Shown piece after piece: positions 1,963-5,345 of a DNA stretch of 5,345 nt. Below the pieces are notes generated by a model. The model was not told the origin of the DNA. It saw only the letters and a program-made list of their open reading frames with translations, and did no database searches. The translations under genes were made by a program, and so were the position numbers. Source of the DNA: a virus (lineage: Duplodnaviria > Heunggongvirae > Uroviricota > Caudoviricetes); the IMG/VR virus record IMGVR_UViG_2639762987_000006. The stretch is one strand, 5' to 3'. Each line of letters starts with the position of its first letter. Position 1 is the first letter of the stretch.

Positions 1963-2427
1963 TTATCTGAGGCATTGCTCTCGAATGTATAGCTGTGCCC
2001 CTTCAAGTTGTTTTTGCATTATTATCAGTCGCGCTCTGAGGGTGAAATAATCCCGTTCAGCGGTGTCTGCCAGTCGGGGGGAGGCTGCATTATCCACGCC
2101 GGAGGCGGTGGTGGCTTCACGCACTGACTGACAGACTGCTTTGATGTGCAACCGACGACGACCAGCGGCAACATCATCACGCAGAGCATCATTTTCAGCT
2201 TTCGCATCAGCTAACTCCTTCGTGTATTTTGCATCGAGCGCAGCAACATCACGCTGACGCATCTGCATGTCAGTAATTGCCGCGTTCGCCAGCTTCAGTT
2301 CTCTGACATTTTTGTCGCGCTGGGCTTTGTAGGTAATGGCGTTATCACGGTAATGATTCAGCCCCAGACTAAGCGCACCACAGGCCGCCAGCAGGGCAAT
2401 GATGACCACGCACAGTACGCGGTTCAT
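1963..2427 (-). CDS. Rz: Rz, spanin inner-membrane subunit (i-spanin), lambda type, 154 aa
   Basis: Tracked ORF. Its translation (…[18 protein letters not shown]…[82 protein letters not shown]…) closely matches lambda Rz as I remember it. It has an N-terminal transmembrane segment, and a second gene is embedded in its +1 frame. Confidence 0.9.
2025..2207 (-). CDS. Rz1: Rz1, spanin outer-membrane lipoprotein subunit (o-spanin), 60 aa, wholly embedded in the +1 frame of Rz
   Basis: Tracked [63 protein letters not shown]. It has a lipoprotein signal with lipobox VVGC, a proline-rich mature part, and a strong Shine-Dalgarno sequence (AGGAG, 7-nt spacer) inside Rz. This matches lambda Rz1. Confidence 0.88.
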
Positions 2428-2725: not shown

Positions 2726-3259
2726 TTATCTGTCGATACCCCAGCACGCCAGCGCGCTCTCCTGGTCACGACGGGATACCTGACCGTAGCAGTTGTTTGA
2801 ACGAATACGGCAGTCTCTGCCACCGTCCTTAATCCACCAGCGAATCGCCTCACACGCTCCCCTGCGATCACCTGCATTAATTCGTTTATAAAACGTCGAC
2901 GGGAAACACTTACTGGGACCAATGTTGTACGGACAGAATGACGCGATCCCCGCTTTCTGGGGTTCGCTCAATGGCACTTTGATGTTTTTCTCCACCCATG
3001 CCAGCGCCTTATCACGCTCAATGGCGTTGACCTGGTCGCATTTTTCCTTCGACAGTTTCATACCGGGAAAAACGGGTTTTCCATCCACCATCGTGGCCCC
3101 CCGACAGATGGTCCAGATGCCGGAACCATCGCGGTATGCCGTTGTGTGGTTACCCTCTTTTTCGTCCAGAAACTGGTCAAGTATCTGAGGAGCAGACGCG
3201 CCTGCAGCAATCAGCGCCAGAACAGCAGCTGACAGGGCGTATTTGATTTTTGCGCTCAT
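2726..3259 (-). CDS. R: Phage endolysin of the T4-lysozyme type (glycoside hydrolase family 24), 177 aa, with an N-terminal SAR or signal segment (RrrQ-like)
   Basis: Tracked ORF. The catalytic triad spacing E-x8-D-x5-T in …DEKEGNHTTAYRDGSGIWT… is that of T4 lysozyme. The N-terminus MSAKIKYALSAAVLALIAAGASAP is a weakly hydrophobic Ala/Gly-rich segment. It pairs with an S21-type pinholin upstream. Length and sequence match my recollection of E. coli prophage lysozyme RrrQ. Confidence 0.9.
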   Translation of the reverse strand: MSAKIKYALSAAVLALIAAGASAPQILDQFLDEKEGNHTTAYRDGSGIWTICRGATMVDGKPVFPGMKLSKEKCDQVNAIERDKALAWVEKNIKVPLSEPQKAGIASFCPYNIGPSKCFPSTFYKRINAGDRRGACEAIRWWIKDGGRDCRIRSNNCYGQVSRRDQESALACWGIDR

Positions 3260-3314: not shown

Positions 3315-3629
3315 CTAACAACCCGTAATCGAGTTATCAGAACTGTTAATTTTTATGGTATACCGCGCCTCTGAACAGGGGCGCGTTTCTGGCAACAGCT
3401 CGTCCCCTTCACATAACCCGGCAGCAACATCCAGGAAGACCTGTCTGATGCTCCTTCTGGCTGCTGCCTCATAAAACTCCAGCGCGGCACCTTCAACACG
3501 GTCCAGCGAGATGTCCAGGTCAAAAATTTCACCGTCAAAGCGTTCTTTGTCCCGTAACGCTAAAGTTACCGTAACTTTATTCTCAAAATTGCGGATCCCT
3601 TTCACAATCAGTTCATATTTTTGAGTCAT
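3315..3629 (-). CDS. ydfR: DUF1327-family protein (YdfR-like), 104 aa, lying between holin and endolysin; function unknown
   Basis: Tracked ORF. Its ATG at 3629 is 4 nt after the holin stop, with GGAGAG upstream. It has no signal peptide or transmembrane segment. Position and sequence match my recollection of YdfR in the Qin prophage lysis cluster. Confidence 0.75.
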   Translation of the reverse strand: MTQKYELIVKGIRNFENKVTVTLALRDKERFDGEIFDLDISLDRVEGAALEFYEAAARRSIRQVFLDVAAGLCEGDELLPETRPCSEARYTIKINSSDNSITGC

Positions 3630-3633
3630 TGAA

Positions 3634-3849
3634 TTACTCTCCCCGTGCAGCCTTACGCTTGTCTTCTTTAATCTTGAAATAAAGGTTTGTCAGGTACGTC
3701 AGCAGGCCAAATACCAGGCTACCCAGCACACCTATTGCTGCCCACTGTGAGGGCGTGACTTTATCGAGCAGCTGTAAAAACCAGTAGCCAGCACTGCCTG
3801 CGGAGGTGCCGTAGGCAATGCCTGTTGAAATTTTGTCCATGGATTTCAT
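3634..3849 (-). CDS. S: Class II holin / pinholin of the phage 21 S type, 71 aa, with a dual-start motif
   Basis: The tracked ORF (3634..3906) was trimmed to the ATG at 3849, which has GAGGTGAGG 5–6 nt upstream. The product [71 protein letters not shown] has two transmembrane segments and a basic C-terminus, and closely matches phage 21 S21 / EssD / EssQ as I remember them. The starts at Met1 and Met4 (MKSM) would give the antiholin and holin forms. Confidence 0.88.
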
Positions 3850-4100: not shown

Positions 4101-4496
4101 CTAACCTCGCATGTCAAAGCCAGATTTCTGAAAATCTCTGTAGACTTCCGGATTGTTGAAGGCCGGAAATTTGGCTTTATGAGCTGCGGACTTTATCGCT
4201 TCGCAATAGGCTTTATCACCGTTACTGGTAGATATTTTTAACGCCGTGCCATCCTGAGAGAATTCCATATGCAACCTGCATTTTTTCCCTTTCCAGTTAT
4301 GCGGCTCATCAAGTTTGGCATTAATTGCAGCTCTGATTCCCCGCGCTTGCGCCCCCCATTCATCCTGATCATCCCAGCGTCCTGAACTGCAACTACCTGT
4401 AGCAGTAGTTTTGTGGCAATCTGAAGGGTGTAAAGGTGTGCATCCCGCAACAAAACCGACCCAAAAAGTCAACATAACGATTTTCTTTAATCCCAC
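4101..4496 (-). CDS. Lipoprotein with a divergent TolA C-terminal (domain III)-like domain, 131 aa precursor
   Basis: Tracked ORF with a GTG start at 4496 (GAGGAG 6 nt upstream). The signal peptide MGLKKIVMLTFWVGFVAGC carries lipobox VAGC, and Thr at +2 predicts outer-membrane sorting. The C-terminal half (…KKCRLHMEF…GDKAYCEAIKSAAHKAKFPAFNNPEVYRDFQ…) shares its Cys pair and PEVY…FQ motif with the neighbouring TolA-III-like paralog. Confidence 0.75.
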   Translation of the reverse strand: MGLKKIVMLTFWVGFVAGCTPLHPSDCHKTTATGSCSSGRWDDQDEWGAQARGIRAAINAKLDEPHNWKGKKCRLHMEFSQDGTALKISTSNGDKAYCEAIKSAAHKAKFPAFNNPEVYRDFQKSGFDMRG

Positions 4497-4646
4497 TTCT
4501 TGCTCCTCAATCCATTAAAATCTCAGCAATAGTAGTTGTTACGTCCGCCACTGGCTCAGAGTTGACTATCCGCTAAATTTAGCTCAGTGCCGTAGTTGTG
4601 TCAGAACAAACCTAAGCCGAAACCGTTTATTACAAAACAATAAATA

Positions 4647-5075
4647 TCAGGGTTTAAAATCCAGCACCCCATTTTGAAATACTTTATATACTTCCGGCGA
4701 AGGGGGGGCAGGTATATCAGCATTCTTTATCGCATTCATCGCTTCACGACATAAATCGAGGTCTCCACTTTCTCTTTTAACCTCCAGTAGAAGGCCATTC
4801 GGGGCCATATGCATTCTCAGTGTACACTCTTTTCCTGAATACTTACTCGCATCCCCGAACTGTTTTTCGATGGCGCTCTTGATTTGATGGGCATACAGAC
4901 GGATATCCTCACTAACATCAGAAGTACGTTCAGATGAACTCACATACTGTGTCTCTATTGCTTTATCGGAGTAATATGATGTACGGTCATGATAATTTGT
5001 CGATACAGCATCAGTGCACCCGATAATAATCCCACTAATAATCAACGTAAGAATTGATGCGCTACGAAAACCCAT
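4647..5075 (-). CDS. Lipoprotein carrying a TolA C-terminal domain III homolog, 142 aa precursor
   Basis: Tracked ORF with an ATG at 5075 (GAGGA 5 nt upstream). The signal peptide MGFRSASILTLIISGIIIGC carries lipobox IIGC, followed by a Ser/Thr-rich linker. The C-terminal ~85 aa (…QIKSAIEKQFGDASKYSGKECTLRMHMAPNGLLLEVKRESGDLDLCREAMNAIKNADIPAPPSPEVYKVFQNGVLDFKP) aligns closely with the C-terminus of E. coli TolA as I remember it (…QIKSAIESKFYDASSYAGKTCTLRIKLAPDGMLLDIKPEGGDPALCQAALAAAKLAKIPKPPSQAVYEVFKNAPLDFKP). Confidence 0.8.
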   Translation of the reverse strand: MGFRSASILTLIISGIIIGCTDAVSTNYHDRTSYYSDKAIETQYVSSSERTSDVSEDIRLYAHQIKSAIEKQFGDASKYSGKECTLRMHMAPNGLLLEVKRESGDLDLCREAMNAIKNADIPAPPSPEVYKVFQNGVLDFKP

Positions 5076-5104: not shown

Positions 5105-5134
5105 ATTATATATACCGTTGTTTTGGACGCTCAA
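5105..5134 (-). promoter_or_regulatory. Candidate sigma70 promoter for the TolA-like lipoprotein genes (minus strand): -35 TTGAGC (5129..5134), 18-nt spacer, -10 TATAAT (5105..5110)
   Basis: Read from the minus strand: a perfect -10 hexamer about 30 nt upstream of the ATG at 5075, with a 4/6 match at -35. Confidence 0.3.
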
Positions 5135-5345
5135 ACAGCGAATCAGATCAAATAAAACGCACATTTGTTAACATTTACACAAAGTCTGCGTGGGATATTC
5201 TGAAAGAATATCCATAATGTGGAGAGAATCTATTGAAGTGCATGGTGCCGGGTGCCTCCCGGTGAATTCAGTACCAGCACCTGAATCCGCGATTATCCCA
5301 TATACCTACTCGCTGATTGCCCCTCCGCACAGGGGGATTCACCAT

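Follow-up and report, generated by a model that had tools for sequence, protein, structure and literature searches.

The C-terminal domain of the Escherichia coli envelope protein TolA (domain III, TolA-III) is represented by several structures (PDB 1TOL, 1S62, 3QDP/3QDR and 2X9A, the last being the complex of TolA with g3p of phage IF1). In the host, it is the domain to which colicins and filamentous phages have to attach for entry, and it belongs to a protein with an N-terminal transmembrane helix and a helical domain II, which is coupled to TolQR and encoded in the tolQRA-tolB-pal operon. We describe here two tandem genes, ORF-A and ORF-B (ORF, open reading frame), in a viral DNA of 5,345 nucleotides (nt) (Caudoviricetes; IMG/VR record IMGVR_UViG_2639762987_000006; hereafter, the window), each of which encodes a small lipoprotein with the same fold as TolA-III (root-mean-square deviation, rmsd, 0.6-2.2 Å, with the disulfide kept). 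In contrast to TolA, both products are predicted to be lipid-anchored and located in the outer membrane, and they are encoded on mobile elements. An initial annotation, made from the letters of the window alone, had reported one such gene and proposed that its product is a decoy for incoming colicins or filamentous phages, or a modulator of Tol-Pal. The observation of a TolA-III lipoprotein is confirmed and extended by our analysis, which found two genes where one had been reported (ORF-B lies at 4496..4101), and the decoy interpretation, strengthened by the genomic context, is plausible.

Several described systems are relevant for comparison. Cor (phi80/N15/HK022), Llp (T5) and TraT (F) are small outer-membrane exclusion lipoproteins that are accessory cargo of phages and plasmids and protect the carrier. 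These proteins block an outer-membrane receptor (FhuA, OmpA), whereas ORF-A and ORF-B would mimic a co-receptor in the periplasm and sequester the invader; in Pfam and PHROG, no sequence relationship of ORF-A or ORF-B to Cor, Llp or TraT was found beyond the match to phrog_5772. Another comparison is with laboratory constructs, i.e., periplasmic TolA-III, the N1 domain of g3p (g3p-N1) and the C-terminal domain of TonB (TonB-CTD), which are uncoupled docking domains or ligands that cause tolerance by titration. Levengood-Freyermuth and co-workers (1993) reportedly observed a tol phenotype with colicin and phage tolerance upon expression of periplasmic TolA-III, and Howard and co-workers (2001) are said to have obtained tolerance by titration with the periplasmic TonB-CTD. 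Such constructs are artificial, soluble and overexpressed, and are accompanied by envelope defects, whereas ORF-A and ORF-B are natural, lipid-tethered and selected genes of mobile elements. Finally, morons located between the Q and holin genes of phages (stx, nanS-p esterase) occupy the same genomic slot as ORF-A and ORF-B, with different cargo; the lc/nmpC porin is likewise moron cargo of the lambdoid Q-to-holin region. A natural, mobile and tethered mimic of a periplasmic co-receptor would be new among exclusion and tolerance systems.

The gene reported in the initial annotation, ORF-A, has the following features.

4647..5075, minus strand: ORF-A, a lipoprotein of 142 amino acids with TolA domain III; ATG start, GAGGA ribosome-binding site
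5016-5075, minus strand: signal peptide and lipobox of ORF-A (residues 1-20), MGFRSASILTLIISGIIIGC
4914-5015, minus strand: linker of ORF-A (residues 21-54, ~34 residues), low-confidence
4650-4913, minus strand: TolA-III domain of ORF-A (residues 55-142)
4647-4649, minus strand: stop codon of ORF-A

The likeness of ORF-A to TolA-III is far beyond chance. Using BLASTP, residues 57-142 were aligned without gaps to residues 336-421 of E. coli K-12 TolA, with 52 of 86 positions identical (60%, E 7e-31); the Pfam TolA C-terminal family PF06519 matched ORF-A at 82.6 bits (E 2.4e-23), compared to a cut-off (the curated gathering score) of 25 bits; and a phmmer search against PDB returned TolA-III chains only (E ~5e-28). 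The assignment of the C-terminal ~85 residues to TolA domain III in the initial annotation is therefore borne out by these scores; the motifs that it listed (QIKSAIE, CTLR, LDFKP and others) are all found in ORF-A, and both cysteines of the disulfide are kept as an invariant pair (C84/C109, equivalent to TolA C363/C388). The predicted lipoprotein signal is present as well: the N-terminus MGFRSASILTLIISGIIIGC contains Arg4, a hydrophobic core and the lipobox I-I-G-C20, followed by Thr21 at +2 and Asp22. As had been expected, the BLASTP match is confined to domain III, and residues 1-335 of K-12 TolA have no counterpart in ORF-A, which thus lacks both the transmembrane anchor and the helical domain II. 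The AlphaFold2 model of ORF-A has a predicted local distance difference test score (pLDDT) of 84-96 at residues 51-142, and below 50 for nearly all of residues 1-49. In a Foldseek search, the best matches of this model were E. coli TolA-III structures: it superposes on TolA-III of the 2x9a complex (chain 2x9a_B) with an rmsd of 0.6 Å and a template modelling (TM) score of 0.96, followed by 1tol, 3qdp and 3qdr; the structural check that had been suggested earlier agrees with the sequence comparison. The order of secondary-structure elements in the AlphaFold2 models of ORF-A and ORF-B is H-h-E-E-H-H-E. ORF-A also matches the profile phrog_5772 (E 1.6e-62), which PHROG annotates as "unknown function".

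Among the sampled TolA representatives, the closest to ORF-A is E. coli TolA (60.5% identity vs at most 57% for the others). Synonymous sites between ORF-A and E. coli tolA are saturated (the synonymous divergence, dS, is ~2.5), and ORF-A is thus an old, diverged relative of TolA and not a recent capture; the term "near-copy" that was applied to it earlier is too strong for 60% identity and saturated synonymous divergence. Recent capture of host tolA was considered as a candidate origin and rejected, given this dS value and the fact that no sampled TolA is more than 60.5% identical. In comparison with a 66%-identical allele, the ratio of nonsynonymous to synonymous divergence (dN/dS) in ORF-A is 0.24 for the domain and 0.47 for the N-terminal half.

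The equivalog profile for TolA, NF007065, scores ORF-A at 107.8 bits, compared to a cut-off of 213, and ORF-B is likewise below this cut-off. The gene is located outside of the tolQ-tolR-tolA-tolB-pal cluster, in the late region of a prophage between Q and holin. Since ORF-A and ORF-B lack both the anchor and domain II, are encoded outside of the tol operon and have sub-cut-off NF007065 scores, these comparisons indicate that they belong to the TolA C-terminal domain family and to phrog_5772, and are not orthologues of TolA. The Prokaryotic Genome Annotation Pipeline (PGAP) names ORF-A "cell envelope integrity protein TolA (tolA)" (12801-13229 in locus L001, which contains the same prophage; to the right of a run of N in the window, the window coordinate equals the L001 coordinate minus 8154), and this name is an over-annotation. 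The profile TIGR02794 matches ORF-A at 75.6 bits, above its cut-off of 59.45, but covers positions 265-362 only of its 362 positions; the PGAP label probably stems from this partial match.

The second gene is located directly downstream of ORF-A, in tandem, and has the following features.

4101..4496, minus strand: ORF-B, a lipoprotein of 131 amino acids with TolA domain III; GTG start at 4496, preceded by GAGGAG
4440-4496, minus strand: signal peptide of ORF-B with lipobox VAGC (residues 1-19, Cys19), Thr at +2
4362-4439, minus strand: linker of ORF-B (residues 20-45), TPLHPSDCHKTTATGSCSSGRWDDQDEW, with a Cys-x8-Cys loop and a WDDQDEW motif
4104-4361, minus strand: TolA-III domain of ORF-B (residues 46-131)
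4497..4560, minus strand: upstream block of ORF-B, kept in the prophage, pO157, an IncI1 plasmid and chromosomal copies of four other genera

ORF-B is a divergent paralogue, with 34% identity to TolA and 29% identity to ORF-A; however, it matches PF06519 (54.6 bits, E 1.3e-14) and phrog_5772 (E 6.7e-65), and its AlphaFold2 model has the same fold. PGAP places the start of ORF-B at an internal ATG (4101-4475; L001 12255-12629), with loss of the charged n-region of the signal peptide. The GTG start and the preceding GAGGAG are conserved in every context that was aligned, and the shorter start was therefore judged to be wrong. An upstream block of ~60-150 nt is also conserved and travels with ORF-B everywhere, which implies that ORF-B and its own 5' region move together as a self-contained cassette.

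Between genera, ORF-B has an overall dN/dS of 0.07-0.12 at dS of 0.5-1.1. The strongest constraint in the gene is found in the linker, where dN/dS is ~0-0.02 at saturated dS and the AlphaFold confidence is low. The Cys-x8-Cys loop of the linker recurs in a few distant members of the family (P0181; a variant with x9 is found in P0193). Colicin-like TolB boxes are exemplified by the ColE9 motif DGSGW...NPW. The ORF-B linker was considered as a TolB box of this type, but a visual comparison gave no support for this: the two sequences differ in the spacing of Trp, and the key Asp and Ser of the ColE9 motif have no aligned counterparts in the linker. Across both genes, dN/dS is in the range of 0.07-0.35; these ratios indicate that ORF-A and ORF-B are under purifying selection and are functional genes, not relics.

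The surfaces by which ligands dock on TolA-III were compared to the equivalent regions of the two lipoproteins. Strand beta-3 of TolA-III (A415-K420) is the site of beta-strand addition for g3p-N1, colicin N and the N-terminus of TolB (PMC4339652; PMC7066135); helix 1 (334-349) contacts g3p (PMC4339652); and the colicin A surface consists of beta-2 (375-LLDIKP-380) plus K368, K379 and K396 (PMC3365938). In ORF-A, beta-3 is identical to TolA L417-D-F-K-P421, helix 1 shares 11 of 14 residues with TolA 336-349, and the sequence LLEVKR stands for 375-LLDIKP-380, with K379 and K396 retained. The beta-2 and beta-3 edges of ORF-B differ from those of TolA. The patch K351-F352-Y353 of TolA has been genetically tied to TolB binding. 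These three residues are kept in 72/89/72% of long TolAs (n = 47), respectively, vs 24/41/27% of short lipoproteins (n = 46), with Gly in ORF-A and Asp in ORF-B, whereas beta-3 is kept in both long TolAs and short lipoproteins. The relaxation of this patch is compatible with a decoy that has been freed from one constraint imposed by a host partner. Similarly, the observation that E. coli TolA is the nearest TolA, together with the confinement of ORF-A to Escherichia and Shigella, would fit mimicry of the host's own TolA.

The ORF-A type is restricted to Escherichia and Shigella, and was found in 888 of 5426 complete E. coli genomes (16%), nearly always on the chromosome. It was found in prophages only and, in every case examined, including the 66%-identical allele, it is located between Q and holin of a lambdoid prophage. 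Among deposited phage genomes, a tblastn search of a phage collection identified ORF-A in one, mEp460_ev081, so that most of the phage evidence comes from prophages and from contigs of IMG/VR. All 156 loci that span the A-B-holin arrangement have it intact, with fixed spacing; these are near-identical prophages and do not represent independent evidence. We also considered ORF-A and ORF-B as an obligate pair, and rejected this idea: the 66% allele of ORF-A is found in other lambdoid prophages that lack ORF-B, and plasmids and chromosomes have ORF-B by itself. In prophages with the 66% allele, a TfpB-family gene and an AraC-type regulator are located just upstream of ORF-A (L165-L168, 4636-6539), and some of these prophages have a nanS-p-like esterase downstream.

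The ORF-B type is more widespread, with 370 clusters across Citrobacter, Enterobacter, Serratia, Klebsiella, Raoultella and Shigella; in E. coli, it was detected in 1269 of 5426 complete genomes (23%), at 825 chromosomal and 525 plasmid places. ORF-B alleles are present on 607 PLSDB plasmids, many of them conjugative. In the two IncI1-type plasmids that we examined (L180 and L181, 7001-7432), an allele with 88% identity directly follows the relaxase genes nikA-nikB, 67 nt 3' of nikB and on the same strand, and in pO157 (L163, 5815-6246) ORF-B is located between the hok/psiAB region and toxB. Stand-alone chromosomal relatives were found in Enterobacter, K. oxytoca, Citrobacter and Serratia, and the Serratia copy adjoins GmrSD and HEPN defence genes. 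Thus, the description "prophage-encoded" in the initial annotation is valid for this locus, where ORF-A is confined to prophages, but not for the family, since relatives of ORF-B reside on plasmids and chromosomes. The genes are not rare: among complete E. coli genomes, 16-23% contain them, and they are routinely auto-annotated as "TolA".

An exhaustive HMMER search yielded 333 TolA-III representatives, of which 69 are short (100-175 amino acids); 46 of these 69 have a lipobox (pattern [LVI][ASTVI][GAS]C). Asp is absent from the +2 position of all 46, and their tethers have a median length of 30 residues, suggesting that outer-membrane tethering is a consistent part of the family design. All named members of the family are auto-annotated as "TolA" or "colicin import membrane protein". 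Full-text literature searches found no characterisation of these TolA-III lipoproteins; the sole mention found is a remark, made in passing, that a cloacin plasmid carries "TolA and TolB family proteins" (PMC10269471).

More distant relatives of ORF-A and ORF-B are encoded on ~380 Klebsiella plasmids of 10-12 kilobases, where the gene for a TolA-III lipoprotein overlaps the gene for a TonB-CTD with a signal peptide. In a K. pneumoniae ColRNAI plasmid of 10,060 base pairs (L162, 5908-6641), the lipoprotein has 123 amino acids and the lipobox LTAC, and its gene overlaps by 4 nt that of a TonB-CTD protein of 121 amino acids (Pfam TonB_C, E 9e-11). In this plasmid, the one of its group that was examined for its neighbourhood, the TolA-III/TonB-CTD pair adjoins an operon of a colicin-E3-like bacteriocin with immunity and lysis genes.

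The window matches a prophage in the chromosome of E. coli MS6198 at 100% identity, and it also matches phage mEp460_ev081. On the minus strand, the gene order is Q antiterminator, tR'-like terminator, tRNA-Met, an STnc100-family RNA element, ORF-A, ORF-B, holin, YdfR/DUF1327, lysozyme and Rz/Rz1; the Q-to-holin interval is the cargo region of lambdoid late operons. The features around the two genes are listed below.

5186-5345, minus strand: full-length match to the small RNA STnc100 (Rfam RF02076; 114 bits, E 1.7e-25; L001 13340-13530), running off the right end of the window
5105..5134, minus strand: sigma-70 promoter-like site TTGAGC-18-TATAAT, matching the consensus at 10/12 positions, ~30 nt 5' of the ORF-A start codon
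3958..3975, minus strand: intrinsic-terminator-like hairpin AGCTCGC-TACG-GCGAGCT with a T-run, between the ORF-B stop codon and the holin gene
3634..3849, minus strand: holin gene (essD-type), the first of the lysis cassette, downstream of ORF-B
3315-3629, minus strand: YdfR/DUF1327 gene, between holin and lysozyme
2726-3259, minus strand: lysozyme
1963-2427 and 2025-2207, minus strand: Rz/Rz1

The G+C content of the cassette is 38-47%, compared to ~50% in the flanks. The promoter-like site, the terminator-like hairpin and the low G+C content of ORF-A and ORF-B would together correspond to the anatomy of a moron cassette, in which the promoter site is suggestive; it was not found to be conserved upstream of the divergent 66% allele of ORF-A. 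The STnc100-like element directly upstream of ORF-A includes a stretch of ~107 nt (5239-5345) that is 94-100% conserved in Stx phages; in Stx phage 75/02, this stretch is located between stx1B and the nanS-p esterase gene. In the cargo slot of the late region, the element may mark either a joint formed by recombination or a regulatory RNA. The early region of the same prophage (L001 17439-20560) contains hokD, an AbiH-family abortive-infection gene and an adjacent hypothetical gene of 463 amino acids; given hokD and the AbiH-family gene, other cargo of the defence type is present in this prophage. A run of N is located in the window at ~170-260 (seen as X in the translated ORFs), where matching genomes are 154 nt longer.

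Our preferred interpretation, which we hold tentatively and at somewhat less than an even chance, is that ORF-A and ORF-B are outer-membrane-tethered decoys against group A bacteriocins and the g3p of filamentous phages. The +2 rule predicts an outer-membrane location for both proteins. The lipid anchor and a flexible tether (~34 residues in ORF-A and 26 in ORF-B) would hold TolA-III just beneath the outer membrane, where invaders, i.e., the disordered translocation domains of Tol-dependent bacteriocins and the N1 domain of g3p, would first appear, and the tethered domain would bind them through the same beta-strand-addition surfaces as TolA. Since the proteins lack the membrane anchor and the helical domain, there would be no coupling to TolQR or the proton-motive force, and a captured ligand would not be pulled in; import would stall, and the cell would become tolerant. 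The N-terminus of colicin-activated TolB may also be bound. The dissociation constant for the TolA-III complex with TolB is ~40 µM, compared to ~1 µM for colicins A and N (PMC4339652; PMC3365938), and a modest dose of the decoy could thus trap invaders without crippling Tol-Pal. Being placed between Q and holin, the two genes would be read in the late transcript, and their own promoter or promoters probably also drive them in the lysogen.

Comparative data partly support the decoy idea, namely the pairing with TonB-CTD on bacteriocin plasmids, the relaxase neighbours, the defence genes in Serratia and the LDFKP identity. The obvious property that TolA-III and TonB-CTD have in common is docking by bacteriocins and phages. 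Conjugative pili attract filamentous phages that require TolA-III, and IncI pili are the targets of phage If1; both the TonB-CTD pairing and the relaxase-adjacent position would be in line with a function directed against bacteriocins and against filamentous phages specific for pili. A reciprocal precedent is known, in which periplasmic g3p-N1 sequesters TolA, resulting in colicin A tolerance and a 4-log drop of phage uptake (PMC10424213). A more general proposal is that mobile elements of Enterobacterales routinely deploy tethered or secreted TolA-III and TonB-CTD decoys, which would amount to a general and so far unrecognised layer of immunity to bacteriocins that depend on Tol or Ton and to filamentous phages specific for pili. 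It would include a division of labour in which ORF-A closely mimics E. coli TolA, and ORF-B adds a binding module in its linker (the Cys-loop and WDDQDEW) with a target such as the TolB beta-propeller or a porin. We consider this wider proposal to be possible, but doubtful.

Several observations weigh against the decoy interpretation. K368, the essential cation-pi contact with colicin A Tyr58 (PMC3365938), is replaced by His in ORF-A and by Glu in ORF-B. The identity of ORF-A to TolA at ligand-contact positions, ~20/30 (67%), is not significantly different from that in the rest of the domain, 32/56 (57%); as the contact positions are no better conserved, the retention of these surfaces in ORF-A does not point specifically to ligand binding. 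The identity of ORF-B to TolA is only 34%, its beta-3 (FDMRG) is diverged, and the decoy model offers no account of the linker, which is the most constrained part of ORF-B. The beta-3 edge also binds TolB, so that any decoy is also a potential Tol-Pal inhibitor. Relatives of ORF-B are found in stable, ordinary-looking chromosomal neighbourhoods in Enterobacter (at least 10 near-identical places) and K. oxytoca, which would suit a housekeeping function in the envelope no less than defence. In addition, neither ORF-A nor ORF-B matches any defence family in PADLOC-DB 2.0, and the total numbers of promoter and terminator matches in consensus scans are within ~2 standard deviations of those in shuffled sequence.

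The dual role of beta-3 leads to the explanation that the primary function is antagonism of Tol-Pal: a tethered TolA-III would bind the N-terminus of TolB and/or Pal and compete with TolA, so that Pal mobilisation fails and the outer membrane loosens. For a phage, the benefit would be in lysis, release of virions or toxins, or vesicle shedding late in infection, and for a plasmid, in the release of bacteriocin. The location of the genes agrees with this, as they are immediately upstream of holin in the late unit, downstream of Q and the tR'-like terminator, and every examined ORF-A allele is in the Q-to-holin region of a lambdoid prophage; the TolB-binding beta-3 strand is identical in ORF-A, and mutations that disrupt the TolA-TolB contact result in a leaky tol phenotype (PMC4339652). 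Conversely, the phage already has a full set of holin, endolysin and Rz/Rz1, and stand-alone relatives of ORF-B on chromosomes and plasmids have no lysis genes nearby and have their own conserved upstream region; constitutive envelope damage would be costly in such places, yet ORF-B is under strong purifying selection. Furthermore, the TonB-CTD partner on Klebsiella plasmids does not take part in tethering of the outer membrane, the family shows relaxation at K351-F352-Y353, the patch linked to TolB, and the affinity between TolA and TolB is low (40 µM). We regard antagonism of Tol-Pal as an unlikely primary function.

The chromosomal relatives of ORF-B also have to be explained, and they favour an alternative in which the proteins are paralogues that serve the physiology of the envelope and are not directed at parasites, for example, as stress- or cell-wall-related outer-membrane lipoproteins. 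In this case, the TolA-III fold and, in ORF-B, the conserved Cys-loop linker would bind another periplasmic partner, and phages and plasmids would carry the genes as fitness cargo. The stable contexts in Enterobacter and K. oxytoca are among metabolic and regulatory genes, the protein is highly conserved across genera despite saturated synonymous sites (dN/dS ~0.1 at dS 0.5-1.1), and the most constrained region is the linker, not the TolA-like surfaces, whereas the beta-2 and beta-3 edges are unlike those of TolA. However, the neighbourhood changes with the genus, and many strains lack ORF-B (it is present in 23% of E. coli), which is the pattern of an accessory gene; copies turn up repeatedly on prophages and on IncI1-type, pO157 and bacteriocin plasmids, the Serratia copy is beside defence genes, and ORF-A is found in prophages only. 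This explanation, too, seems improbable to us, although not to the extent of the trivial one, i.e., that a phage picked up a fragment of host tolA that is now decaying. The homology of the domain to host TolA and the PGAP label "TolA" are in line with such a relic. Nevertheless, both ORFs are intact and have good ribosome-binding sites, their lipoprotein signal is purpose-built, they are carried by hundreds of genomes with the A-B-holin arrangement intact in all 156 spanning loci, dN/dS is 0.07-0.35 over deep synonymous divergence, and saturated synonymous sites compared to tolA show no sign of recent capture. A decaying tolA fragment is effectively refuted by these data on selection and distribution, and we assign it hardly any probability.

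If the interpretation of ORF-A and ORF-B as decoys is correct, a broad-spectrum tolerance factor occurs naturally in about one-fifth of E. coli strains and in many strains of Klebsiella and other Enterobacterales. Such tolerance would span group A colicins, klebicins and filamentous phages, and would act via imitation of a co-receptor, not by receptor block or toxin neutralisation. It would have a bearing on the ecology of colicins in the gut and on the hosts used for phage display, and therapeutics based on bacteriocins or phages would face resistance that is possibly pre-existing and mobile. The "TolA" annotations in thousands of genomes would need another interpretation, and ORF-A and ORF-B would be natural reagents for studying how far Tol-Pal tolerates titration without harm.

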